Source: an uncultured bacterium
GTDB lineage: Bacteria > Fidelibacterota > Marinisomatia > Marinisomatales > UBA1611
NCBI GenBank assembly: GCA_965660855.1
Contig: CBFIBM010000001.1
Location: forward strand, 1 to 64,000
Direction of reading: 5' to 3'
DNA: 64,000 bases
Part shown: positions 26,299 through 39,014 of the stretch, piece by piece
How positions within the stretch are numbered: position 1 is the first letter of the stretch
How the letters are laid out: every line of letters begins with the position of its first letter
Notes under the pieces: model-generated
The model's database searches: none
Told to the model about the DNA's origin: nothing
What the model saw: the letters and a program-made list of their open reading frames with translations, nothing else
Made by a program: the position numbers and the translations under genes

Positions 26299-27642
26299 TT
26301 ATTTTATATTATAAAAAAAACCAATATCAATAGAGTTTTTCTTTAATGATACTCTATCATTATCCTCAAAAACAACGACATTTTTAAAATCTATATTACT
26401 AAATGATATTCTACCTGATAGCTTATTTTTATAATGCTTAACCAAATAAAAGGAACTTATTATTTTTTCTTCTACTATTATAGATTTGTGAAAACGTGGG
26501 AGATGTTTATCTATGTAATTATCTTGAATTGAGGATTTGTCATTTAAGCCACGTTTGATAGTAGTAATATTAAGATTGATTTCTAGATCTTTTAATTTTT
26601 TTTGTGCAAATAATATTAATTCTTGAGAATGAGGACCTGCCCAAAAACCTAGTGGCTTATTATGACTGTAAAAATCATTAACATTAAACTTATGCTTATA
26701 TATTCGCTGATCTGTCCAATTATACTCGAATCCCCATGTAATAAGTTTATTTAAAAATATTTTTGAATTAAACCCTAATTGCCAAGCAAACCAATTATGA
26801 TTTTTAGAATTAAATAACCATTCTGGTGTTAGTTCATCCATAAAAAAAGATAAGTAAATAGCTTTGTTTTTAGTTGGATTAAATCTTAAATCAAAACCCA
26901 TTTGAATGTTATCCGTATCACCTAAATAATTTTCTATGGGGTAAAATGGTATAACTGGAATACTGTAGTTAAGGTCTAATCCTCGAAATGCGTAGATAAC
27001 TGTTTCGTTCAATGCAAATAATAGTTTTTTATTTATTATCCACTCCAGTCTATGACCCGCTATAGACCTTTTTACATTAATAGATCTTCCAAGGTTATTA
27101 TTACTATTGTAGTAATAATTATATGATGAATCAATAATTCCACTCACTAGAAAACCATGAAAATAATATAGTCTTAAATTATCATTAATTTTCCAATCAA
27201 AACCAAGCTGCGGGTAGGAAGGCGCCTTGTTTGAAAGGTGGATGGCATTAACTCCATGCCCCCATTTTCTATCAAATTTTCCAAAATAAATATTGTAATT
27301 ATTCCCATAATATGAAATTTTTGCTTCAGAAAACTCACTCCAATAACCATCAGAGTCTTTAGATTTATCTATGTATGGTAATGATTGTTGATTAGTCAAA
27401 GAATAAAATGAAGTATCTATTCCTTCACCAAGAATTCCAAGCTGTATATATTTTGATGTGATTATAAAATTATTTTTTTCATAGAAGAATTCTAATCCAG
27501 CGCCAAATGTTGTGATTGGTCTATTAGAGGTTATCCAGTCTTTCCCGGATGATGAATATTCACTAAATAAAATAGGTTCAATAAAGTGATTTTTTGAAAA
27601 TAATGAGTTTATGATAAATAAGAATAAAAATTTTATAAACAT
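26299..27642 (-). CDS. Capsule assembly Wzi-like outer-membrane protein
   Basis: GKFDRKWG.G....LSNKAP, GHRL, ETVIY, DN..MG.D and PLG.WAGP motifs; within the polysaccharide locus. Confidence 0.7.
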   Translation of the reverse strand: MFIKFLFLFIINSLFSKNHFIEPILFSEYSSSGKDWITSNRPITTFGAGLEFFYEKNNFIITSKYIQLGILGEGIDTSFYSLTNQQSLPYIDKSKDSDGYWSEFSEAKISYYGNNYNIYFGKFDRKWGHGVNAIHLSNKAPSYPQLGFDWKINDNLRLYYFHGFLVSGIIDSSYNYYYNSNNNLGRSINVKRSIAGHRLEWIINKKLLFALNETVIYAFRGLDLNYSIPVIPFYPIENYLGDTDNIQMGFDLRFNPTKNKAIYLSFFMDELTPEWLFNSKNHNWFAWQLGFNSKIFLNKLITWGFEYNWTDQRIYKHKFNVNDFYSHNKPLGFWAGPHSQELILFAQKKLKDLEINLNITTIKRGLNDKSSIQDNYIDKHLPRFHKSIIVEEKIISSFYLVKHYKNKLSGRISFSNIDFKNVVVFEDNDRVSLKKNSIDIGFFYNIK

Positions 27643-27650
27643 TTATTTAC

Positions 27651-29627
27651 TCACTCACTCCTAGCACCGCGGAATATTATATTATAAAATGCTTTTGAAA
27701 AATATTTTACATCTGTAAGAAAAGGATTCCTTTTCTTTTTTAATAAATATAACTCTTCACTTTTAATAATATCTTCAAAAGAACTTGGCATATCTGCATA
27801 ATAAGGCGGAACTAAACCTGGCTTTGCTTGGATTCTTAATTTTTGAATTTTACTTGGATATAAGCTAAAATAATGTTCACTAAGAGCTCTTACACCAATT
27901 AGTTTTATATCTCCAATTAACCAATTGTATATTTGAGGAATTTCGTCAATGAAATAGGATCTAAAAACTTTTCCCCAAGAGGTTATTCTAAAATCATTTT
28001 TGAATTTTCCCGAATTTCCAAGATCATGTTTATTATAAATATGATCTTGGATAAATTCACTGTAAGGATACATTGTTCTTAATTTATAAACATAGATTCG
28101 CTCACCTTGGTAACCAATTCTTTTTAATTTCACAATTGGTCCGTAAGAAGGATATTGCTCATTGGATATTGTATTAATTTTTCTAGCAATAAAATAAGAG
28201 GTATATCCTATAATTTTTTCTTCAATTACTTCATAGCCACAAAAAGATAATCTTCCTAGAATTTCAGCTTTAGATAAAATTCGATTTTTTCCTCTTGTTA
28301 ATAAAAAGTAAATCTGTTTTGTAAATGCTAGTTTGGGGAATACTCTATAAAAGAAAAAATGAAAAGGTAATAGAATTATGTATAAAAAATGGGGCATTTT
28401 TGATCTTAGATGACTATTCATGCTTTCCAAAGGAATAAAATTTCCAATAAGTAAACCATCATTTTCTAATTTTGAATATACATCTAAGAAATATTCATTA
28501 ATTCTACGAAAATCATTTATCTTATGTAAATTGATAATCAGTTTATTAGAATTATTTATCAAAAACTTTATATTTGAAGAAGTTTCAGTGTTAAATATTG
28601 ATAATTTGCTTTTATCAATTTTTTCAGAATTTATTGATTCCCAAATAAAATCAATTACATCTTTAATATTTTTTCGTTTTATTTGATTTAAACTTTGTTT
28701 GAGATCGCTTCTTAAAAAATCATTTTTATGTTTGCTGACTTTTTTTTGTATTTCAAGTCTCTTTTGACTATCATTCAGATTTTTTACTCGTTCATAATTA
28801 AATTCTTGATTTTCATTTAATTTGCTTCTTTCTGAAAAATATAAAAAGTATGTAATTATTTCAAATGTGGAATGAATAAATAACACACTAACTAATTGTC
28901 TAATAAATATATATTCAATTCTTAAAATAAAATAAGAAAAATTAATAAATAAGAAAGATAGAATAGATGCTTTTATGTATGGAGCAATTTCATAATAATG
29001 ATTTATTGATATTGGTGTTTTATATCTGTTTGTAAGTAGCGTGGAAAGACCCCAAGATAAAATTAATAATAAAAAATTTTGCTCTTGGAATAAGTTATAC
29101 TGAAATGATCCGTTATTAAAATAATTATATAAAATATAGATAACGATTAAAGATATTCCACCTGGAATAAACCATTTTAAATGAAAAACTTTATTACTTA
29201 TAAAATCTCTATTTCTTTTCAAAGAAACTATTTTTATATCTGCGATTTTTATAAAGTATCTAAATATAATTATCAAAATAGACTCAATTAAAGTAACAGA
29301 AAACGTAAATGATAAAATAAATAATCTAGAAATACTCCACATATCTGAAAAAGAAATGGAAATAACAATAAATAAAAGTGACATCGTAGATGACCAAAAT
29401 ATTATTCTTAGAATAATTTGAAATTTATTATCAATTATTAAATTATATTTATCATAATAAAATGAAAATACTACCCATAAAGAGATGCTAATGGGATATA
29501 ATTTTAAGTAAACACCTGAAGGAATAAGAATTTGAAATTTTTGGAAGTGTAATAAAAAGAATATTATATTTAAAATAAATAAATCTATTAAAAGTAAAAT
29601 ATTTTTCAATTTATTCTTTTCAATCAT
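27651..29627 (-). CDS. Polyprenyl-phosphate sugar (phosphoglycosyl) transferase with extended N-terminus
   Basis: C-terminal RIG..G....YKLRTM, DFRIT..G, DEIPQ, GDIKLIG; about 8 N-terminal TMs. Confidence 0.85.
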   Translation of the reverse strand: MIEKNKLKNILLLIDLFILNIIFFLLHFQKFQILIPSGVYLKLYPISISLWVVFSFYYDKYNLIIDNKFQIILRIIFWSSTMSLLFIVISISFSDMWSISRLFILSFTFSVTLIESILIIIFRYFIKIADIKIVSLKRNRDFISNKVFHLKWFIPGGISLIVIYILYNYFNNGSFQYNLFQEQNFLLLILSWGLSTLLTNRYKTPISINHYYEIAPYIKASILSFLFINFSYFILRIEYIFIRQLVSVLFIHSTFEIITYFLYFSERSKLNENQEFNYERVKNLNDSQKRLEIQKKVSKHKNDFLRSDLKQSLNQIKRKNIKDVIDFIWESINSEKIDKSKLSIFNTETSSNIKFLINNSNKLIINLHKINDFRRINEYFLDVYSKLENDGLLIGNFIPLESMNSHLRSKMPHFLYIILLPFHFFFYRVFPKLAFTKQIYFLLTRGKNRILSKAEILGRLSFCGYEVIEEKIIGYTSYFIARKINTISNEQYPSYGPIVKLKRIGYQGERIYVYKLRTMYPYSEFIQDHIYNKHDLGNSGKFKNDFRITSWGKVFRSYFIDEIPQIYNWLIGDIKLIGVRALSEHYFSLYPSKIQKLRIQAKPGLVPPYYADMPSSFEDIIKSEELYLLKKKRNPFLTDVKYFSKAFYNIIFRGARSE

Positions 29628-29842
29628 CTATTTTATCCACCATTTTATATTTGATTGTATTTATTTATTGAACATGAATTTAATTTAAAATGTAAATAAT
29701 TAGGGTGTGATGGACTGCACCATGGATAAGAAGATGTTATATAAAACGTAAGCATTTTTTATTTATTTTTTAAAAAAGTTAACGTTTTATATCAATATAT
29801 TATATTCCAATTGTTATTTAAATTTATGTATTTAAAATAATA

Positions 29843-30904
29843 TTATGAAATATTAAATTGAAAGCTAGGGTCTTTTTTTAGTATTTTAAAACTTTTTGGA
29901 TAATTTGTGATAAACCAGTAAATAAATTTCTTTAATTTAATCTGTTTTTTGATCATCTCGCCACTTCTTAAACGATATTTAGTTTTTATATCTTTTTGAT
30001 TTAATATATCCAATGCTTTTGGTAGAACACCTTTTGATGAAGAAAATCGATATATTAATCCAAATTTTTCCTGTTCTTTGATCGTACCAGCAGTTAGAGA
30101 GTTTACATAAATTGCGGGTGTACCTATCATAGCACATTCAGATGCCATTGTCGCACCTTCTCCAATAAAAAGATCAACAAATTTTAGAAGATTATGAATA
30201 CTATTGGGCTGAATTGGTAGTTCATATTTTATGAACTTTTCAGGAATTTTACCTTCGCATGAGATAAAAATATTTACGGAATCTTTAATTGAATTAATTA
30301 AAGATTCAAGATCCTTAATTAAAAATCCGCTTTGCCCAATATCATGACTTGCATTCCATGATACTAAGCGAATTAATACCGATTTATCATGAATTATATA
30401 TTTAGGATTAATGATGGGCTTTGATGAGATATTATCATTCATGTAGCATTGTTCCATAAAACCATTAAAACGGATATGCTTCTTTCCTAAATCTCGATCA
30501 TAAACATTTGGGGTAAGTACAACATTTGAAAATGGTAAAAAAGAAGCAATACCTAATTTAGCGTGCTCTGTATCTGTAAAAGCTATATGATGTTTATTCA
30601 TCATAAATGATACCTGTGCTGCATATGGTGATGCGAAGCTAATAAAAAGATCTGGACAGAATTCTTTTGCCTTTTTGAATAAAATCAAATTGGTTTTTAA
30701 AAGATATATAATTTTTCCAATTAAGGTGTTTTTCCCTTTTCCTCGATTGTAGTATCGTATGTTACAATCATTAAGTAATTCAATTGTCACGTCTTTATCT
30801 CTAGCTGAAACAAAAACATGATGTCCTTTTTTTTCTAATTTATTTATCAAAAATTTAAAATAATGGACATGAGCAGGATGACCGATATCAATGAAAAATT
30901 TCAT
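29843..30904 (-). CDS. DUF354-like GT-B fold protein
   Basis: IDIGHPAHVHYF, ARDKD, DTEHA, GEGATMASECAMIGTPA. Confidence 0.8.
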   Translation of the reverse strand: MKFFIDIGHPAHVHYFKFLINKLEKKGHHVFVSARDKDVTIELLNDCNIRYYNRGKGKNTLIGKIIYLLKTNLILFKKAKEFCPDLFISFASPYAAQVSFMMNKHHIAFTDTEHAKLGIASFLPFSNVVLTPNVYDRDLGKKHIRFNGFMEQCYMNDNISSKPIINPKYIIHDKSVLIRLVSWNASHDIGQSGFLIKDLESLINSIKDSVNIFISCEGKIPEKFIKYELPIQPNSIHNLLKFVDLFIGEGATMASECAMIGTPAIYVNSLTAGTIKEQEKFGLIYRFSSSKGVLPKALDILNQKDIKTKYRLRSGEMIKKQIKLKKFIYWFITNYPKSFKILKKDPSFQFNIS

Positions 30905-32037
30905 AATTTCTTGGTCTTGTTTATTATTTCAAGAACTTTATTCATATAGGTATTTTTTGATATTAAAATATCATGAGAAGTTTGTCGCTTATCGATATTT
31001 TTGTTAATTCTTTTTAACTCAATTGGGTTTTGAATTATTTGAGACAACAATTTTGTCAACTCAGAGTCTTTATTTGGATTAAATAAGAAACCATTTTTAT
31101 TATTTATATATTCTTTTATCCCTCCAACGTTAGAACCAATTACTGGTGTTCCTGATGCAATAGCTTCAAGCCCTACCAAACCTAAAGGTTCCTCTCTTGA
31201 AGGAAAAACAAAAATATCTGCTATATTATATAAAATATTCAATTTTTCTTGGTTTACTTTTTTTAAAAAAAAAATAGAGTTTCCTAAATGATGTATTGCT
31301 TTAAGTTTCTTTTTATTTGATTCAAGTTCTGGACCATCAGAACATATTAATAAATGAATTTTTTCTAAATTATTTTTACTTAAATTGCTTAGTCCATTCA
31401 CTAAAATATCTAAACCTTTTCTTGGAATAGCACTGCCCGCAAACATCAAGATGAACTTTGCAGGATTGATGTTAATTTTTATTTTTTCTTCATAAACTAT
31501 TTTTTCATCTAACTCAAAAAATTTATTATAATTTACTCCTGGCGAAAGCACACTTAAATTTTTCTTGTTAAAATTAAAATATTTTAAAATTTTAATTTTA
31601 ACATCAGTACTATTAGCAAAAATAAAATCACAATTTTTAATAGTAAACCTATATATTTTTTTATATATATTATTTGATGATGGGTAAATATTTAGATCAC
31701 CGCCATGAACATGAAGTATTACAGGAATATGAAAAATTTTTTTAAAAATTACTGCTATAAAACCACTTATCATTACTCCATGGGGATTTAGGACATTAAA
31801 AGATTTAATTTTAAACAAAAGCTCTATCTGACTCAAAAAGAAAAAAAGGTATTTAATTAAGTTGAAGATAAATTTTTTTCTATTACTGGCATTTCCCCAT
31901 AGATCATAAATTTTATTATAGAAAACTTTAACTTGAATCGAATCTTTATTTAATTCATCAACTAGATTTTTAATAAAAATTTGATTTATTTTATTTTTTT
32001 TTGTTGGGTAACTATTACAAATGATGGCAATTTTCAT
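30901..32037 (-). CDS. Glycosyltransferase family 4
   Basis: HGGD, KGLD.L, FVFPSREEPLGLVGLEAIASGTPVI. Confidence 0.9.
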   Translation of the reverse strand: MKIAIICNSYPTKKNKINQIFIKNLVDELNKDSIQVKVFYNKIYDLWGNASNRKKFIFNLIKYLFFFLSQIELLFKIKSFNVLNPHGVMISGFIAVIFKKIFHIPVILHVHGGDLNIYPSSNNIYKKIYRFTIKNCDFIFANSTDVKIKILKYFNFNKKNLSVLSPGVNYNKFFELDEKIVYEEKIKININPAKFILMFAGSAIPRKGLDILVNGLSNLSKNNLEKIHLLICSDGPELESNKKKLKAIHHLGNSIFFLKKVNQEKLNILYNIADIFVFPSREEPLGLVGLEAIASGTPVIGSNVGGIKEYINNKNGFLFNPNKDSELTKLLSQIIQNPIELKRINKNIDKRQTSHDILISKNTYMNKVLEIINKTKKL

Positions 32038-32043
32038 GAAATA

Positions 32044-33288
32044 CTAAGAATTTTTAATTTTTCGATTCTGTGATAGACTTCCAAGGAAGAAAAAGAATAA
32101 TGTTCCAGATGTAACAGAGTCTATTACATGACCACCAAAAAATGCATATAATAAAAATAAAGAAAAAACTAAACCATCTCTTGTAAAAATTATTTTAATA
32201 TATGTCTGGATATTCCAAAAAATGATTACTAGAAATAAAACAAGGCCAACTATCCCATATTTGAAAAAAAAGTCAAAAAAATCCATTGATGCATGTCTGA
32301 AAATAAATTCTCCGCGTTTCTCCCAAAAAATATTTTGACCCGTTAAACTTTTTCCAAATAATGCTGAATTTAAATTTTTATAAGATTCATTCATCTGGAT
32401 GTTCATGGATGCATATCTTCTAAAATTAACAGATGCAACGTTATTAATCATTTTATTATCATAAAGTCCACCAACTTTTTCTGCAGCCGCTATTGATTTA
32501 CTAATATTGAGCCCAAATCTTTTTTCATAAAGTTCAATAGCTTTTTCTGATATTGTAGAAAAAGATAAAATCATAATAAATGAGGAAAATGTATAGAATA
32601 TCAACTTATTCAAACTAAGGTATTTTCTCTTTAAAGCAAAAAAGATTGGTATTATGAATCCAAAAATACTTTTTGATGCTATTATAAAACCGTTAAATAA
32701 GGTAAAAGAAATTGGAATAATTTTTCTTCTTAATGTACCATCCATTATAAAAAAAGTGAAGAAAATTAGATTCAAAATTGATACTGGGTTTCCTCCTTGG
32801 AACATTCCTTTCGAAGTACCTGAAAAACGATATGCTTCTAAGCCAAATCCAAAAAAATAACCATTGAACAGGTTTAAGGTTAGAACAGTAAAGTTAATAA
32901 GCATGATTTTTTGTATCAAGTTTTCAGTAATAAAAAATCTGTTTCTGACATAAACTAGAATGAAAATTAAAAATTGCTGTCTTAAAATATATGGAATGTT
33001 TTCTGAGAACATCCGACCAGAGGGATTAATTATATAATTAAAGAATAAGTTGAAAATAAAATAACATAATATTAAAATTGCAAAAAATTCATCAGCATAT
33101 AATTTTTTTTTTTTTAATTGATAAACGTAATAAAAAATTAATATTAAAACTAGAGGACCTCTTACCCAATATCCAATATTAAATAAAGGGTTTGTAATTC
33201 CGATATAAACTCTTATAAACCCACTAATTGCATCAATAAATAAAAATAAATATAAATAATGCTTAATTAAAAAATTTAGGTTCAGCAT
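32044..33288 (-). CDS. Probable polysaccharide polymerase Wzy
   Basis: About 10 TMs, periplasmic loop, HASMDFFD..YG..G pattern; lies between the flippase and glycosyltransferases. Confidence 0.65.
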   Translation of the reverse strand: MLNLNFLIKHYLYLFLFIDAISGFIRVYIGITNPLFNIGYWVRGPLVLILIFYYVYQLKKKKLYADEFFAILILCYFIFNLFFNYIINPSGRMFSENIPYILRQQFLIFILVYVRNRFFITENLIQKIMLINFTVLTLNLFNGYFFGFGLEAYRFSGTSKGMFQGGNPVSILNLIFFTFFIMDGTLRRKIIPISFTLFNGFIIASKSIFGFIIPIFFALKRKYLSLNKLIFYTFSSFIMILSFSTISEKAIELYEKRFGLNISKSIAAAEKVGGLYDNKMINNVASVNFRRYASMNIQMNESYKNLNSALFGKSLTGQNIFWEKRGEFIFRHASMDFFDFFFKYGIVGLVLFLVIIFWNIQTYIKIIFTRDGLVFSLFLLYAFFGGHVIDSVTSGTLFFFFLGSLSQNRKIKNS

Positions 33289-34517
33289 ATATTTATTTTT
33301 TTCTTCAATAAATTTATTTTAGTTATTGCAGTAGCTATTTGAAATCCTATTCCAACTAGAATACCAATTGTATAGCCTATAGCTACTCCCAATAACCCTA
33401 AATTGGGGATTAATAACAACCAAGTAGCCAATGACACAGTTAAGATTATAATACCTCCAATATTAGGATAAATAACATATTTTGTTCCTGACAAAAAAGC
33501 AACAAATGGTATTGAGATCATTCGGATAAATACACTCGGAATTAAGATAGTTAATGCTGCGCTTCCAGAAATAAAATTTTCTCCAAATATTCCAAGGATA
33601 TCTTCAGAGAAAACAAAGATTAAAGAACAAATTGAAAAAGACAAAAAAATTAACAATAATGTTGATTTTTTTAATATTCTCAGAATTTCATCAAAATTAT
33701 TTTGACCAAATAACTTGGAAAACTCCGGAAGAAAAACTTGAGTAAATAGTTTAGGTATAAACATTAAAATACTAATAAACGATAAAATAGATGAGTATAT
33801 ACCGGCTTCAGAATTTGTTAAATACATTCCTGTAATAATTACTGATAAATAACCAGTTCCAGTGCTAGCCACAGTACCAATCATACTTGTAAAACCATAT
33901 TTGTAAAATATAGATGAGGTGACCTTACTATTAAATGTTTTATCTTCAATTAAATTGGATATAATTTTTTTATAATTTAGGATAAATGTGATTACAGATA
34001 ATATGATAAAAAATGAATAAGAAATAATAAGAGTTTTAATTAATAATGCATCCAATTTATTTGTACAAACGTACAAAATAGAACAAACCATTATTAATCC
34101 TGAAACTATTTCAATAATTACATATTGTTTGACTAAGTCTATACCGTAGAAGGCTCTTCTAAAAATTATATAAAAAGTTCTAACAAATATATAAACTAAT
34201 ATCGTTATTCTTATGTCGGCAGGTAATGAAAACAAATTATAAAATGAAGACCATCCAAAATAAATAATTATTGAGGATATAATAAGAGATATGAATGATC
34301 CAAAAAATATTAATTTTATTACATGGTTGAATTTATTCAAATTTTGAGATCCTCTGTATTCTGCTAAAAACTTATTGCCAGAACTTCCAAAAAAATTTGT
34401 TATAAAAATTGTGATAATTAATGAAAAGCTTATTGAAATACTAACTGAGCCTAAAACCTCATCACCAAAATTTTTTGCAATAAGGAAATTAAATAGAAAT
34501 GGTACTAGTCCAACCAT
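33282..34517 (-). CDS. wzx: Polysaccharide flippase Wzx (true start probably further upstream)
   Basis: About 12 TMs; EAGIYS, QVFLPEFS and LIPNLGLLGVAI motifs. Confidence 0.8.
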   Translation of the reverse strand: MVGLVPFLFNFLIAKNFGDEVLGSVSISISFSLIITIFITNFFGSSGNKFLAEYRGSQNLNKFNHVIKLIFFGSFISLIISSIIIYFGWSSFYNLFSLPADIRITILVYIFVRTFYIIFRRAFYGIDLVKQYVIIEIVSGLIMVCSILYVCTNKLDALLIKTLIISYSFFIILSVITFILNYKKIISNLIEDKTFNSKVTSSIFYKYGFTSMIGTVASTGTGYLSVIITGMYLTNSEAGIYSSILSFISILMFIPKLFTQVFLPEFSKLFGQNNFDEILRILKKSTLLLIFLSFSICSLIFVFSEDILGIFGENFISGSAALTILIPSVFIRMISIPFVAFLSGTKYVIYPNIGGIIILTVSLATWLLLIPNLGLLGVAIGYTIGILVGIGFQIATAITKINLLKKKINIC

Positions 34518-34583: not shown

Positions 34584-35783
34584 TTAATTTTTTCGATCAG
34601 AAAATAACGCAAAAGGGATAGAAAGCATACATCCTGTAAAAAATGATAGTATGACAATAAGAGTTCTCTTAGGCCTAGATTTTTTAACAGCCGGTTCAGC
34701 TAAATCTAGAATATTTATTAGTAGCTTTTCTTTGGCTTCATCAATTTTTGCTATTTCAAGCTGTTGACGAATTGTTATATATACAGTCCTATTCTCTTCA
34801 ACACGACTTTCGAGCCTTTCTCTAATCATTTCCGTGGTAGGAGTATCAAGGCGTAATGGATTATTTTTTCGAAATTTTGTAAGTTTGTCTTCTGAGTTTT
34901 CTGTTTTTAATTTTGCTTCTTCCATTTGCTTCTGCACAAAAATAATATTTCTATTTGCTTCCCTTTTCTGTTCTATAGAAATAAAGTTTTTTACATATTC
35001 TGCTATATAATTTGCAATGTTTGAAGCTAGTATTGGATCCTCCATTTGAACTCGAACAGTTATTAAACCTGAAATTTCTTCTTTTACAGAAATTAAATCA
35101 TCTAACTTTAAAATCGATTCATATGTGTACAAGTCTAATTTATTAAGATTTTGGCTACCTGATGGAAGAATGCTCCGTATTATTTTCATTGGTGAAAACA
35201 TTTTTATTTTATCTATTTCCCAATAGGTAATAAGGTTTGAACCTTTTGGGTATTTTTGTGATTTCCAATCTTTAAGAACAATATCTTTTTTTAACCTTCT
35301 ACTTCTAATAATATCAGGAATATTGTAGGTAGGTGCACTAGAGAGCCCGCCCATGCCAAAAGATTTTGCTAAACCTTGAAAATCTCCTAAAATACCTCCG
35401 CTTTGGCTTAGCTCACCCGCAGGGTATAATGAAATATTTGACTCAAAATAAATGGTAGCAATCAGGGAATAAGTCAAGCCAATAGTTGTGGATATAAGTG
35501 CAAATTTCACAACTAGTTTTTTCTTATACTTTAAAATATTCCAAATTTCTTTCACATTAATTTCATCATTATCCGTAATCAATGAATCTTGTTCAGATTT
35601 AATATTTTTTTTATCTAAATCTATAAATCCTCTTTTACGAAATTCTGCAATCCTATTTCTTAATGTTTTTTCAGTAAGTCCATTTTGTTTTGCTATGAGG
35701 CTCCTTTCCTCGGGACTGTCAATTATTTTTGGATGTTGCTCAATAATTTTTAATATTTTTTCTTCGTGAGGAGTTAGTTTCAT
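34584..35783 (-). CDS. Wzz/GNVR-type polysaccharide co-polymerase with N-terminal HTH-like extension
   Basis: DEINVKEIWNIL + TM1, coiled-coil periplasmic region, ILD.AEPAVKKSRPKR + TM2; first ~55 aa HTH-like. Confidence 0.8.
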   Translation of the reverse strand: MKLTPHEEKILKIIEQHPKIIDSPEERSLIAKQNGLTEKTLRNRIAEFRKRGFIDLDKKNIKSEQDSLITDNDEINVKEIWNILKYKKKLVVKFALISTTIGLTYSLIATIYFESNISLYPAGELSQSGGILGDFQGLAKSFGMGGLSSAPTYNIPDIIRSRRLKKDIVLKDWKSQKYPKGSNLITYWEIDKIKMFSPMKIIRSILPSGSQNLNKLDLYTYESILKLDDLISVKEEISGLITVRVQMEDPILASNIANYIAEYVKNFISIEQKREANRNIIFVQKQMEEAKLKTENSEDKLTKFRKNNPLRLDTPTTEMIRERLESRVEENRTVYITIRQQLEIAKIDEAKEKLLINILDLAEPAVKKSRPKRTLIVILSFFTGCMLSIPFALFSDRKN

Positions 35784-35790
35784 ATTTTTT

Positions 35791-37485
35791 TTAGTTATTT
35801 TCTAAAATTCGTTGAATAACTACAATTGTAGTAATTATTTGAGAAAAAGCAGTGATTGCTTCTCTAGTTATTATCCATTTTTCATAGTCGGGTTTTTCAG
35901 GAATGAATATTATATCAGTATTTTCAATTATTTGATTTTTTTTAAATTTTTTCTTTTGTCCTGTCGAGGATTTTATTAGAAATCTTTTACTACTTCTTCC
36001 TTTAATTAGGCCACCTGATTGATCAATATAATAAGAGATTGATTTATCTTTTATATATGGATACCTACCAGGCTTATTTACGGCACCTATAACTTCAATG
36101 TAAGGATAATAAGTAGGTATATGGATTTCGTCGTTTGCTAAAATTAATTCTTTAGAATTTTTTAAAATATTTAATTTTGTTTCCAAATACCCTTTCTGCG
36201 ACCTAATTCTAGCTTTTGCATATGCATTTTCATCAGTTGTTCTATTCAAATCATTAATTAATAAGATTCTTTCTAACTCTAAATCGGTCTCTTCTCCAAT
36301 CTCTTTATTATAAATTCTAATTTTACTTGTGTCGGCATATTCTGTAAATCCACCTGCACTTTGAATTAATTTATTAAATGAAGTTGTTAATGGATAAATG
36401 CCTGGATAATTAATTTCTCCGGATATTTTTACCATTTTTTTTGATTTCTTGTAATCTAAGTAGGGAATCATTACCTGATCTTCAGGAGATAACTTAAAAG
36501 AATTTTTTTCACCAAGACTTAAGTAAGTAGACTTACTGTCAAACTTATTCGAATGAATGATTTCCACTTTGATCTCTTTTATATCCTTTTTGAGACCTCC
36601 AGATAACTCGATGAGGTCTTCCAGTGTATCACCGTATTTATATTCATAGCTACCTGCATTTTGTATTCCTCCGTAGATATAATTTTTATATTCTATAAAT
36701 GGGATATTAATTATATCTCCTTGATTTATATACGGGTTTTGGGAAATGTCGCCCGTAGATTGAAATCTTTGAAGATCTATATTAATGGTATCATTAGCCC
36801 TAATAACTTTAATGTTTCTTTTAGATAATTTTTTGAAATCTATTAAGTCTTTATTCTCAGGTATCCGATTATTGTACAACTCTTCAATTGAATAACTATT
36901 TTGGTAATTAGAATTTTCCTTGCTGTTTTTTTCAGATTTGTTACTTAGTTCTTCTTGTATTTGCTCCTCATATTTCTGTGTTACATCAGCAAATAAATCC
37001 GATATACGACTGATGGCTGTAGATGAAAAATATCCAGCATTTTTAAAATGACCAGTAACAAGAACTTTAAATTCGCGTATTCCTTCTAATTCAACATTTA
37101 CTTGAGCATCTAGATTCCAAGTCTTTATCTTATTTCTAATAAGTTTAATGAGCTGATCAAGAGTTAATTTGTTAGTTTTGATTATACCAACGGAAGGAAT
37201 TAAAAGTTCACCGGAGGGTGATATGATAAGATTATAATCAAATGTTTCATTGCTAGAAATAACATTTATATGAATTTTATCGCCAGGGCCAACCCTATAA
37301 TCTTCAGGTATCACAGATTTATCTAAAATGAATAAGTCCTTTTTCCCAGAATTTGAAGAATAGTTTGCATTAGAGGTATTTGCCTTTGCCATTCTTTTTT
37401 GTGCCATACGTAGGGAATTAATATCTAAAGTTTGTAATTGTGGCAAGCAGTGAATAGTTAATACTATAACAAGAATTCGTTTCAT
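35791..37485 (-). CDS. Polysaccharide export protein (Wza/KpsD-like, SLBB repeats)
   Basis: YRVGPGD.I, G.LLIPSVG and repeated G.(I/V)..(P/A)G.Y...I..(A/S)GG SLBB motifs. Confidence 0.85.
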   Translation of the reverse strand: MKRILVIVLTIHCLPQLQTLDINSLRMAQKRMAKANTSNANYSSNSGKKDLFILDKSVIPEDYRVGPGDKIHINVISSNETFDYNLIISPSGELLIPSVGIIKTNKLTLDQLIKLIRNKIKTWNLDAQVNVELEGIREFKVLVTGHFKNAGYFSSTAISRISDLFADVTQKYEEQIQEELSNKSEKNSKENSNYQNSYSIEELYNNRIPENKDLIDFKKLSKRNIKVIRANDTINIDLQRFQSTGDISQNPYINQGDIINIPFIEYKNYIYGGIQNAGSYEYKYGDTLEDLIELSGGLKKDIKEIKVEIIHSNKFDSKSTYLSLGEKNSFKLSPEDQVMIPYLDYKKSKKMVKISGEINYPGIYPLTTSFNKLIQSAGGFTEYADTSKIRIYNKEIGEETDLELERILLINDLNRTTDENAYAKARIRSQKGYLETKLNILKNSKELILANDEIHIPTYYPYIEVIGAVNKPGRYPYIKDKSISYYIDQSGGLIKGRSSKRFLIKSSTGQKKKFKKNQIIENTDIIFIPEKPDYEKWIITREAITAFSQIITTIVVIQRILENN

Positions 37486-37745
37486 AATTTTAATTTATTT
37501 TTTTTGGATATGATTACAGGAACGGATCTCTATCCTTTTATATTTTCAGTTATTTTTTATTTGTTAAACTAATAGCAGTTTAAATCGATAGAGTATCCTG
37601 AATCATTATTGAAATTATTCCTATTATTAGGGACATGCAAACAAATTATTGCCCGGGCATATGCCCGATTTAGATTGGTTTTGTTATTATTGGTTTTATA
37701 CTGAAAAGCCAAATAAATTAAATAAATAAAATTAGATAAAATAAT

Positions 37746-39014
37746 ATGATTTCAATAAAAGAAATAAGAGAAAAACCAGAGTATATAGAGAAAAAGCTGA
37801 TTTCTAAGAACGATAGATCGGATATTAGTAATCTTTTAAAAATTGATAATGAGCTGAGAAATCTAAAAACTAAATCTAGTGAATTAAGAGCTAGTCGTAA
37901 TTCAGCTTCGGAGAGTATTGCTTTAATTATAAAAAATGGTGAAGATCCATCTCATGTAATAAGTCAAACAAAAAATATTGGTGAAGAATTAAAGTTTGTT
38001 GAAAAAGAATTAGACAGAGTAGAAAAAGAGTTCAGCTATATTATGGAAAGAATTCCAAATACCCCGCATGATTCTGTTCCAGTTGGGGAAAATGAATCTG
38101 AAAATATGTTAGTCAGAGAATGGGGAGAGAAGAAAGAATATGATTTTCCTCTGAAAAACCATTTGGAAATTGGTGAAAGCTTAAATCTTTTTGATTTTAA
38201 AAGAGGAGCAAAATTATCTGGTAGTGGATTTCCACTCTACGTAGGCAAAGGTGCAGAACTGGAAAGGAAATTAATTAATGCTATGCTAGACTATCATATT
38301 CACACCTTTGATTTTAAAGAAGTTTTACCATCAGTATTGATAAATAAAGAATCGATGCAAACAACTGGGCAACTTCCAAAATTTCAAGATGATATGTATC
38401 ATACTGAGGTGGATAATTTATATTTAGCACCTACTGCTGAAGTACCAATAACCAGTTTTCATAGAAATGAAATTTTAAATGAATCTGATCTTCCCCTGAA
38501 ATATGTTGGTTATACACCGTGTTTTCGAAGAGAATCAGGATCTTATGGTAAAGATACAAGAGGCCTACTTCGAGTACATCAATTTAATAAAGTTGAGCTT
38601 GTAGAATTCACCACACCTGAACAGTCATTTGATCGATTAGAAGCATTAACTTTACAAGCTGAAAGTGTGTTGCAAAAATTAGGTCTACATTATAGAGTGA
38701 TAGAGTTATGTTCTGGAGATTTAAGTTTCTCAGCTTCAAAGTGTTATGATATAGAAATATGGGCTCCTGCTGAGAAAAAATGGCTGGAAGTTTCATCTTG
38801 TAGTAATTTTGAAAGTTTTCAAGCCAGAAGAGGTAATATTAAATATCGTTCGGATAAAAATAAAAAAATAAATTTTATACATACTATAAATGGATCGGGA
38901 GTTGCAACTCCAAGGCTTGTGGTTGCATTAATTGAAACATATCAGAATTCGGAGGGTATTGTTCGATTTCCAAAAGAAGTTGCTTCTTTTTTAGGCATTA
39001 AAGAACTTTTATAA
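37746..39014 (+). CDS. serS: Seryl-tRNA synthetase
   Basis: LAPTAEVP, FRRESG, RGLLRVHQFNKVE, EVSSCSN, HTINGSG. Confidence 0.97.
   Translation: MISIKEIREKPEYIEKKLISKNDRSDISNLLKIDNELRNLKTKSSELRASRNSASESIALIIKNGEDPSHVISQTKNIGEELKFVEKELDRVEKEFSYIMERIPNTPHDSVPVGENESENMLVREWGEKKEYDFPLKNHLEIGESLNLFDFKRGAKLSGSGFPLYVGKGAELERKLINAMLDYHIHTFDFKEVLPSVLINKESMQTTGQLPKFQDDMYHTEVDNLYLAPTAEVPITSFHRNEILNESDLPLKYVGYTPCFRRESGSYGKDTRGLLRVHQFNKVELVEFTTPEQSFDRLEALTLQAESVLQKLGLHYRVIELCSGDLSFSASKCYDIEIWAPAEKKWLEVSSCSNFESFQARRGNIKYRSDKNKKINFIHTINGSGVATPRLVVALIETYQNSEGIVRFPKEVASFLGIKELL

Follow-up and report, generated by a model that had tools for sequence, protein, structure and literature searches.

Membrane-tethered one-component regulators such as ToxR, TcpP and CadC combine an OmpR/PhoB-type winged helix with one transmembrane (TM) helix, and RodZ consists of an XRE-type helix-turn-helix (HTH), a TM helix and a periplasmic domain. 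Here, we describe a gene, HTH-PCP, whose product joins a predicted HTH to a polysaccharide co-polymerase (PCP), and which lies on a 64,000-nucleotide stretch of DNA (the window; positions 1 to 64,000 of contig CBFIBM010000001.1, assembly GCA_965660855.1) from an uncultured bacterium of the order Marinisomatales. This bacterium belongs to the Marinimicrobia (SAR406), which are abundant, uncultured members of the ocean interior; to our knowledge, nothing is known about the control of their cell-surface polysaccharides. Like the PCPs Wzz and WzzE (PCP-1), Wzc (PCP-2a) and KpsE (PCP-3), HTH-PCP has Wzz and GNVR regions and a helical periplasmic domain flanked by two TM helices, and its gene neighbours Wza-like, Wzx and Wzy-like genes. 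It differs in carrying a cytoplasmic N-terminal HTH, which is present in none of the solved PCPs that it matched, and in having no C-terminal bacterial tyrosine kinase (BY-kinase).

A helix-turn-helix domain on a kinase-less co-polymerase

The initial annotation of this DNA, made from the sequence alone, had read 35619-35783 as an HTH extension placed ahead of the motif DEINVKEIW at the start of a Wzz chain-length regulator. This interval encodes residues 1-55 of HTH-PCP exactly as quoted there, and DEINVKEIW occupies residues 73-81, downstream of the HTH stretch. The parts of the gene and its product, with the evidence used for each, are:

34584..35783 (-): HTH-PCP gene, encoding an N-terminal HTH and a kinase-less Wzz/GNVR polysaccharide co-polymerase of 399 aa (open reading frame (ORF), Pfam, PCP fold matches, 495 homologues)
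35619..35783 (-): predicted HTH domain, residues 1-55, MKLTPHEEKILKIIEQHP...RNRIAEFRKRGFID (AlphaFold2 (AF2), Lrp/AsnC fold neighbours, profile match to the winged HTH (wHTH) of Csa3, HTH_24)
inside 35619..35783 (-): presumed recognition helix, residues 38-51, TEKTLRNRIAEFRK, net charge +3 (AF2 helix, charge count)
35523..35618 (-): linker, residues 56-87 (low AF2 confidence, variable alignment columns)
35454..35522 (-): TM1, about residues 88-110 (hydropathy peak at residue 90; AF2 helix 88-108)
34668..35453 (-): periplasmic co-polymerase domain with long coiled-coil helices 250-307 and 315-354 (AF2, Foldseek)
34599..34667 (-): TM2, about residues 373-395; a cytoplasmic tail of four residues, without a kinase, comes after it (hydropathy peaks 373-377; GNVR)

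Pfam placed Wzz (PF02706) at residues 73-126 with 30.5 bits (cut-off 25.5) and GNVR (PF13807) at residues 323-394 with 41.8 bits (cut-off 27.7), and hydropathy put the TM helices at about 90-108 and 374-395. The full-length AF2 model, with a predicted local distance difference test score (pLDDT) of 76, starts with a helical unit from which a linker of low confidence leads to TM1; the periplasmic domain, with its two long helices, and TM2 come next. When searched with Foldseek, the model matched Wzc (9r6b, E 3.3e-11), WzzE (8p3p, 2.6e-9), KpsE (8tsh, 3.6e-7) and also WzzB. By its Wzz and GNVR domains, its two-TM fold and its gene context, HTH-PCP is a member of the polysaccharide co-polymerase superfamily, which bears out the annotation's reading of the body as a Wzz-type co-polymerase. 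Its remark that a Wzc kinase domain is missing was likewise correct: no BY-kinase domain was found with Pfam or NCBIfam, the ORF ends four residues past TM2, and the NCBIfam matches, to Wzc, EpsF and other chain-length proteins, were all partial and far below threshold. As a C-terminal BY-kinase is the criterion for PCP-2a (Wzc/Etk type), HTH-PCP does not belong to that class. Within the linker, residues 56-72 are variable and modelled with low confidence (pLDDT 56-57 at residues 51-70 of the full-length model), and are followed by a conserved L-I-T-x-N-D-E-I-N, where Wzz starts, and by a basic KYKKK before TM1. The TM positions and the known topology of the co-polymerase family place the HTH in the cytoplasm.

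An AF2 model of residues 1-62, built from 18 aligned N-termini, reached a pLDDT of 86.9 and contained helices at residues 5-16, 18-21, 24-33 and 38-51. In an exhaustive structural search with these residues, Lrp/AsnC N-terminal domains made up nearly all of the top twelve rows (Z 5.7-6.6, root-mean-square deviation about 2.1-2.6 Å over 53-57 residues), while the sequence profile of the domain matched the DNA-binding wHTH of Csa3 with an E-value of 2.3e-6, GerE with 1.2e-3 and Lrp-type proteins with 0.05-0.12. Pfam HTH_24 matched 18/18 family N-termini scanned alone (E <= 0.1, best 2.9e-7). The domain holds 12 K+R against 9 D+E, its third helix is basic, and the segment E38-K39-T40-L41-R42-N43-R44 (EKTLRNR) of the recognition helix was invariant in 20/20 and 18/18 aligned sequences. 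Weaker leads came from the ESM Atlas, where scores reached at most 0.78 and every match was to a winged-helix family, among them one with the name 'MarR family EPS-associated regulator', and from the Pfam scan of the whole protein, in which HTH models appeared only below threshold (HTH_Mga, E 0.041; HTH_28, E 0.058).

As modelled, the N-terminus is a divergent three-helix HTH of the HTH_24 (Lrp/AsnC-like) type. Several results weigh against this assignment. The fold matches are modest, with 30 chains at Z >= 5, none at 8 and a maximum of 6.6; Foldseek with the 62-residue model returned no match at E <= 0.001, its highest-probability rows being LrpA (0.99, TMq 0.65) and AsnC; and the window's own HTH scored 18.3 bits against HTH_24, under the cut-off of 21.9. 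The annotation had proposed an AsnC/Lrp-like winged HTH. The likeness extends to the HTH type only: the RAM domain is absent, and neither the full-length model nor that of residues 1-62 contains a confidently modelled wing. Because there is no RAM domain and residues 73-399 are Wzz/GNVR, HTH-PCP is not a member of the Lrp/AsnC family.

Conservation and distribution of the fusion

The whole of HTH-PCP matched 495 proteins. Of the 120 top-ranking homologues listed, 118 align over at least 99% of the query and are 396-408 aa long, and those that are named come from Marinimicrobia/Neomarinimicrobiota. When one genome was taken per species, giving 27 loci, a single frame ran over residues 1 to about 398 in 25 of them and the other two were cut by contig ends. 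Over codons 1-54, identity at codon positions 1, 2 and 3 was 0.66, 0.88 and 0.49 (window and 24 loci), a pattern indicating that these codons are translated, and the next in-frame methionine after M1 is residue 194. Full coverage in 118/120 homologues, the invariance of EKTLRNR and the codon pattern put the HTH stretch beyond chance. The join is also spanned by independent assemblies: a 2101-nt contig from a separate DNA run, X5, covers 34981-37081 with 2 differences, and RNA-library contigs covering 35574-35925 and 35594-35831 connect the Wza-like stop codon to the beginning of the HTH. At least 0.90 of the words of the stretch were present in each of 14 runs from 6 studies, three of them possibly the source. 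As an RNA library can contain DNA, these contigs are compatible with expression, short of proof. The initial annotation had allowed that the frame might be broken in reads or relatives, that translation might start downstream, or that the fusion might appear only in this assembly; the contigs and the 25 unbroken frames, the lack of an in-frame ATG before residue 194 together with coding-type variation in codons 1-54, and the occurrence of the fusion in 105 genomes and in the independent DNA contig speak against these doubts. In RNA-library contigs of three runs, a T/A run at 35784-35790, between the Wza-like stop and the HTH-PCP start, differs in length by 1-2 nt; this indel at 35784, the only one there, is strain variation or a homopolymer error, and lies outside both frames.

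The HTH profile matched 105 of 401 sampled genomes of the phylum (60/190 of the high-quality genomes), spread over 41 of 114 genera, nearly always as one copy per genome and at the start of frames of 390-600 aa; the window's own genome has one strong copy. Carriers fall almost entirely in the window's order and include 35 of the 43 genomes of its family, and the profile found no match in several other families of the phylum (0/37, 0/38, 0/26 and 0/33 genomes). HTH-PCP is thus a conserved single-copy feature of one Marinimicrobia order. Among genomes of the window's family without a profile match, the gene of G193 is cut by a contig end and G217 and G259 are simply unmatched, which is no evidence of loss. 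With residues 1-60 as the query, all 116 proteins listed with a Pfam record carry Wzz and/or GNVR. The HTH heads two co-polymerase bodies, the 400-aa type of the window and one of 430-500 aa, which are 34-36% identical overall. In the closest unfused proteins, P0124 and P0125 (339 aa), the alignment begins at about query residue 70, and within the same class, four families belonging to other orders have unfused orthologues with frames of 327-383 aa.

A search for stand-alone versions of the HTH returned 72 short proteins, most on contigs < 3 kb and mostly contig-end fragments, and seven on contigs > 20 kb. These seven (P0242, P0349, P0353, P0381, P0366, P0346 and P0323) are 56-171 aa long, lie on contigs of 20-298 kb and have an HTH-PCP-like start, in P0346 after a 66-residue lead; P0353 and P0381 stop a few residues past the HTH and the other five in the linker, in TM1 or later in the co-polymerase. 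To judge from their sequences, they may be truncated or frameshifted copies. Two further loci have unusual surroundings. The 2964-nt contig L012, in a bin titled Alphaproteobacteria MarineAlpha6, carries a full HTH-PCP gene 63% identical to the window's and is probably mis-binned Marinimicrobia, and in the single-cell assembly of L027 (1-6703) a truncated HTH-PCP and a Wzx fragment are followed downstream by the Wza-like gene and serS in inverted orientation, a layout that is a rearrangement or a chimeric contig.

A second type of HTH occurs at the same place. An XRE-type HTH_3 precedes Wzz in P0163 (33.0 bits), P0175 (38.9) and P0174 (23.9; cut-off 23), and HTH_3, Wzz and GNVR stand together at L077:1309-2472 of genome G059 (37.4 bits) and in L101 (G191). 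Proteins with this XRE-type architecture are 367-440 aa long and are encoded behind a Wza-like gene. G059 and G191 belong to a genus nested within a family, and the EKTLRNR domain is present in the family's other genera; within the genus of G059 and G191, that domain was found in 0/18 genomes and the XRE form in two of the six tested. On these comparisons, the XRE-type fusion appears to be an independent second HTH at the same co-polymerase position, and the presence of two independent HTH types at one position suggests that the arrangement is selected, not accidental.

A palindrome in HTH-PCP gene clusters

Comparison of the regions upstream of HTH-PCP genes drew attention to an 8-bp palindrome, GCCCGGGC. 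In the window, the sites concerned and the region beside them are:

37651..37666 (-): site A, GGGCATATGCCCGGGC, with the palindrome GCCCGGGC at 37651-37658, preceded by GGGC-N4; candidate operator/anchor (alignment, counts)
37282..37289 (-): position of site B, in the Wza-like G-P-G-D codons; degenerate in the window, GCCCTGGC, 7/8 (locus comparison)
37486..37650 (-): conserved region from site A to the Wza-like start codon, with TTTG / AGAATAA promoter-like blocks and a leader (alignment conservation)

Short-form loci have the order serS (divergent), intergenic region, Wza-like, HTH-PCP, Wzx, Wzy-like, and long-form loci the order ugd, (rmlC), rmlB, short Wza-like gene, HTH-PCP. In the short form, GCCCGGGC was invariant in 23/23 aligned upstream regions (the window and 22 others) and present in all 24 loci with upstream sequence; L002, L012 and L020, which have none, were left out of the count. 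The palindrome usually follows GGGC-N4 and precedes a TA-rich block, TTTG and AGAATAA, and six of the 23 aligned regions keep it without the GGGC arm. An exact second copy lies inside the Wza-like gene, about 360-450 bp downstream of the first, in 23 of the 24 loci. The G-P-G-D codons read GGC CCG GGC in 14 of the 16 genes in which the search pattern found them, compared with GGC CCT GGC in the window and GGT CCT GGA in L011. The single exact GCCCGGGC of the window compares with 0.05 expected from shuffles, and among the four copies in the 2.09-Mb, 31% G+C assembly, site A is the sole intergenic one, the other three lying within genes.

In long-form loci, an exact copy was found 1-4 kb upstream of the HTH gene in 13/14 cases, always in coding DNA: either in ugd, at the codons for IYEPGL, VARAIG or VARAMG, or in the Wza-like gene, whose signal-peptide codons then contain GGGC-N4-GCCCGGGC. 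The ugd IYEPGL site reads CCC GGG C in 12 of 13 HTH-bearing clusters, the thirteenth having the motif in its Wza-like gene (the ugd of L071 was missed by the search pattern), and in 0/8 genomes of domain-less lineages (G258, G207, G018 and G006; G107, G150, G191 and G059 of the XRE genus). From local codon usage, CCC-GGG is expected at 0.006-0.043 and GCC-CGG at 0.003-0.12. L098, a locus of a domain-less lineage, has two 7-mers elsewhere, and G205 and G309, in which the ugd site is present and the HTH gene was not found, were treated as ambiguous, their genera being mostly HTH-bearing. In one genus of the window's family (L070, L071 and L047-L052), GGGC-N4-GCCCGGGC, which is intergenic elsewhere, lies inside the Wza-like signal-peptide codons (..LG[NY]ARAQ..), about 50 nt after the Wza-like start and 1.2 kb before the HTH-PCP gene.

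Genome-wide counts of GCCCGGGC in these lineages are low, mostly 1-13. In six of the eight HTH-bearing genomes with a single copy (G288, G189, G245, G320, G278 and G317), this copy shares the contig of the HTH gene and lies 1.0-3.7 kb upstream of it; of the genomes with two copies, G183, G185 and G347 fit the same arrangement. The palindrome was absent from all 12 unfused orthologous loci and CCC GGG from the GPGD codons in 11 of 11, and at least nine genomes that carry an unfused orthologue lack it entirely. In the genomes compared, GCCCGGGC co-occurs with the EKTLRNR HTH and lies in the cluster 0.2-3.7 kb upstream, either between genes or, by means of rare codons, within them. As a correlation among related genomes, this shows that where the EKTLRNR domain occurs, the palindrome tends to be retained in the cluster, whether as DNA or as RNA. 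This rare palindrome is retained although rare codons are needed for it, and its copies in ugd and the Wza-like gene exemplify a non-coding signal that constrains synonymous sites.

Against a tie between palindrome and domain stand the degenerate site B of the window and a number of exceptions elsewhere. L060 has only ACCCGGGC, a 7-mer; the single copies of G233 and G321, and the two copies of G226, which is of the same genus, lie on other contigs; and the assembly of G242 has the HTH and no exact GCCCGGGC. Base composition weakens eight of the unfused loci as controls, as they have 23-25% G+C; the four others have 32-42%. The association is also confounded by descent, most carriers belonging to one order.

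The other genes of the window's cluster, whose order is the same in related loci, are:

35791..37485 (-): Wza-like outer-membrane polysaccharide export gene, Poly_export and 3 SLBB (Pfam; order kept in related loci), ending 7 nt before the HTH-PCP start codon
33282-34517 (-): Wzx-like flippase (Pfam)
32044-33288 (-): O-antigen-ligase/Wzy-like (Pfam 24.3, below the cut-off of 31)
30901-32037 (-): GT4 (Pfam)
29843-30904 (-): DUF354 (Pfam)
27651-29627 (-): Bac_transf (Pfam)

The part downstream of HTH-PCP thus spans 27651..34517 (-). The last ORF of the cluster, 26299-27642 (-), encodes 447 aa and matched no Pfam family at E <= 0.001, and serS diverges from the cluster at 37746.

The leader within 37486-37650 (-) is conserved in 20 species-level genomes, with AAGGAATACTATCGA...CTGCGCCCAGTTTA...AAAGGCAA as its conserved parts. 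A duplex search run on each sequence found a long-range helix with arms at 37586-37599 and 37523-37535 (duplex z <= -3.3 in 17/20 sequences), the arm sequences varying by lineage (GGAATAC/GTATTCC, GGAAATC/GATTTCC, GGATTTC/AAATTCC). RNAalifold on a MAFFT alignment of the 20 leaders predicted no pairs, and Rfam on 37400-37800 (E <= 10) gave chance-level matches only. The leader may be an undescribed cis-regulatory RNA of polysaccharide operons. RNA-library contigs extend to 37556 at most, leave 37608-37800 uncovered and cannot place the transcript start, and a sigma-70 scan of the intergenic region was uninformative (1 site, 2.9 expected). A GC hairpin flagged as terminator-like on the + strand was rejected, as no gene ends there.

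Proposed function and relation to described systems

We propose that HTH-PCP would be one bifunctional membrane protein, its co-polymerase body working with the adjacent Wza-like exporter, Wzx and the Wzy-like polymerase, and its basic cytoplasmic HTH held on a flexible tether of about 20-30 residues. The HTHs of a co-polymerase oligomer would bind GCCCGGGC, often at two copies about 160-450 bp apart, coupling the export machine physically and through regulation to its own operon; a multivalent binder would fit the palindrome's usual occurrence in two copies. One option is that transcription would be under feedback control that follows the state of the membrane or periplasmic part, much as with ToxR or CadC, with repression and activation alike possible; another is that the locus would be anchored at the membrane. 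The site varies in position, lying beside promoter-like blocks in the window's family and within the first genes elsewhere. The initial annotation had inferred a DNA- or RNA-binding co-polymerase that could feed back on its operon or tether the locus; this inference is supported in part, the locus-specific palindrome making DNA binding plausible by correlation.

We consider it somewhat more likely than not that the HTH binds nucleic acid. That HTH-PCP regulates or anchors its own locus as a membrane-tethered protein, taking both options together, seems to us an even call, and binding to the GCCCGGGC site in particular is a tentative suggestion, placed a little below even. A further version of this proposal is improbable, in which the tethered HTHs of the ring would seize the GCCCGGGC sites of their own cluster in cis while the N-terminus emerges in coupled transcription, translation and membrane insertion, so that the locus is pinned to the membrane at the place of exporter assembly, two sites separated by a few hundred bp are looped, and occupancy of the periplasmic or membrane part by polymer or partners sets transcription of the operon. 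If it were true, the export machine would be its own locus anchor and transcription sensor, and a sister genus would have arrived at this solution independently, by way of an XRE domain. Other considerations count against binding at the palindrome by HTH-PCP: the palindrome, 8 bp long with abutting half-sites of 4 bp, is short if two HTHs are to sit on the same DNA face; sites in transcribed or coding DNA, as found in most lineages, fit an RNA-level or elongation signal equally well; another factor could own the palindrome; and membrane-anchored HTHs can make protein contacts, as RodZ does with MreB.

By analogy with such contacts, the HTH might instead be a protein-docking module that recruits a cytoplasmic partner, such as a glycosyltransferase, an initiating transferase, a separate kinase or a cytoskeletal element, the palindrome then belonging to another factor. 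We regard this as doubtful. It would agree with the absence of a confident wing, with the protein-contact winged helices of ESCRT-II and Rpa2 among the fold matches, and with the restriction of the HTH to co-polymerases in the searches made, which a dedicated adaptor would be expected to show; DNA binding by the HTH is, moreover, a prediction. It accounts less well for a third helix that is both basic and invariant, for a best sequence match to the DNA-binding wHTH of Csa3 and for a locus-specific palindrome that co-occurs with the domain, and selection for generic DNA binding by an HTH would explain more readily why a nested genus has an XRE HTH_3 at this position.

It is unlikely, in our view, that GCCCGGGC and the HTH are unrelated, the sites being a transcription or RNA signal (a pause or anti-termination element, a GGGC-N4-GCCC hairpin or part of a leader) and the HTH binding mRNA or something else. 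The sites do lie within coding sequence, and hence in the transcript, in the long-form clusters and one genus of the window's family, the short-form motif can form a GC hairpin of 4-5 bp, and the leader downstream contains a conserved long-range helix. The palindrome is nevertheless kept without the GGGC arm in six of the 23 upstream regions, and in the samples examined the sites and the HTH were gained and lost together. In addition, three of four HTH-bearing genomes checked have a single NusG-like gene, and no dedicated paralogue was found there, making a dedicated RfaH/UpxY-type reader unlikely in them and weakening an RfaH/ops-type explanation. One genome of the window's family has, besides the housekeeping gene, a second NusG-like one (G047:C11:3179-3457, 63.7 bits); each of the four others that were checked has one. 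In the window's own genome (84% complete) no NusG was found, which is uninformative since the housekeeping copy is missing as well.

Finally, an artefact of gene calling or assembly, in which a downstream start or an erroneous gene fusion would leave the HTH-like stretch outside the protein, is very improbable: it could draw on the lack of an obvious Shine-Dalgarno sequence before the ATG, on the T-run length difference directly upstream of the start in RNA-library contigs and on the several short predicted proteins that stop in the linker or TM1, but the evidence against it is strong, with one open frame in every locus not cut by a contig end, 105 genomes, coding-type third-position variation, no ATG in frame before residue 194, DNA and RNA-library contigs across the join, and an indel that falls outside the frame.

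The initial annotation had not recognised the fusion as a characterised one, and we likewise found no description of an HTH-Wzz fusion in the full-text literature, with subscription journals, bioRxiv supplements and InterPro architecture tables lying outside the search. A related case is that of the VanZ-1 Lipocone membrane enzymes, for which passages of a preprint report HTH/RHH fusions in exopolysaccharide and lipid-carrier contexts and propose that these couple enzyme state to transcription (bioRxiv 10.1101/2025.01.14.632903). As far as those passages go, they share with HTH-PCP the union of an envelope-polysaccharide membrane protein with a cytoplasmic DNA-binding domain, and differ in the membrane domain; a Wzz-HTH fusion is not mentioned in the relevant passages of that preprint.

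For the HTH itself, Lrp/AsnC and HTH_24 provide the closest fold and Pfam model, with the sequence pattern to which the initial annotation had pointed, from which HTH-PCP differs in having no RAM/ligand-binding domain and, in the window, a sub-cut-off copy. Its best profile match is the C-terminal wHTH of the CRISPR-associated transcription factor Csa3 (PDB 6w11/2wte/6wxq; E 2.3e-6 to 1.1e-5), which extends from helix 2 through the turn and helix 3 to where the wing begins (SEKTLINKIAELKKFGIL vs TEKTLRNRIADLKKYGVI); only about 30 residues are alike, the organisms and contexts are unrelated, and HTH-PCP has no CARF domain. With RodZ it shares a membrane-anchored N-terminal HTH that belongs to a cell-envelope machine, which makes RodZ a precedent for a role other than DNA binding, whereas the HTH class (XRE-type only in the sister-genus variant) and the partner machine are different.

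Parts of one article (PMC9214523) deal with VtrA/ToxR-like membrane-tethered regulator systems. Like ToxR and CadC, HTH-PCP has an N-terminal cytoplasmic domain of DNA-binding type, a TM span and a periplasmic domain, its orientation being taken from the known topology of PCPs, and these regulators serve as the working model of how a signal could pass from the periplasm to a promoter. The OmpR/PhoB-type Trans_reg_C domain was not among the Pfam hits of HTH-PCP or of 18 N-termini, so HTH-PCP is not a member of the ToxR/CadC group; its HTH is HTH_24-like, it has two TM helices, and its periplasmic part belongs to the working parts of an export machine. By analogy, HTH-PCP may work like ToxR or CadC, and if it binds DNA, it would link a Wzx/Wzy export machine directly to gene expression, with no need for a separate regulator or a tyrosine-kinase relay.

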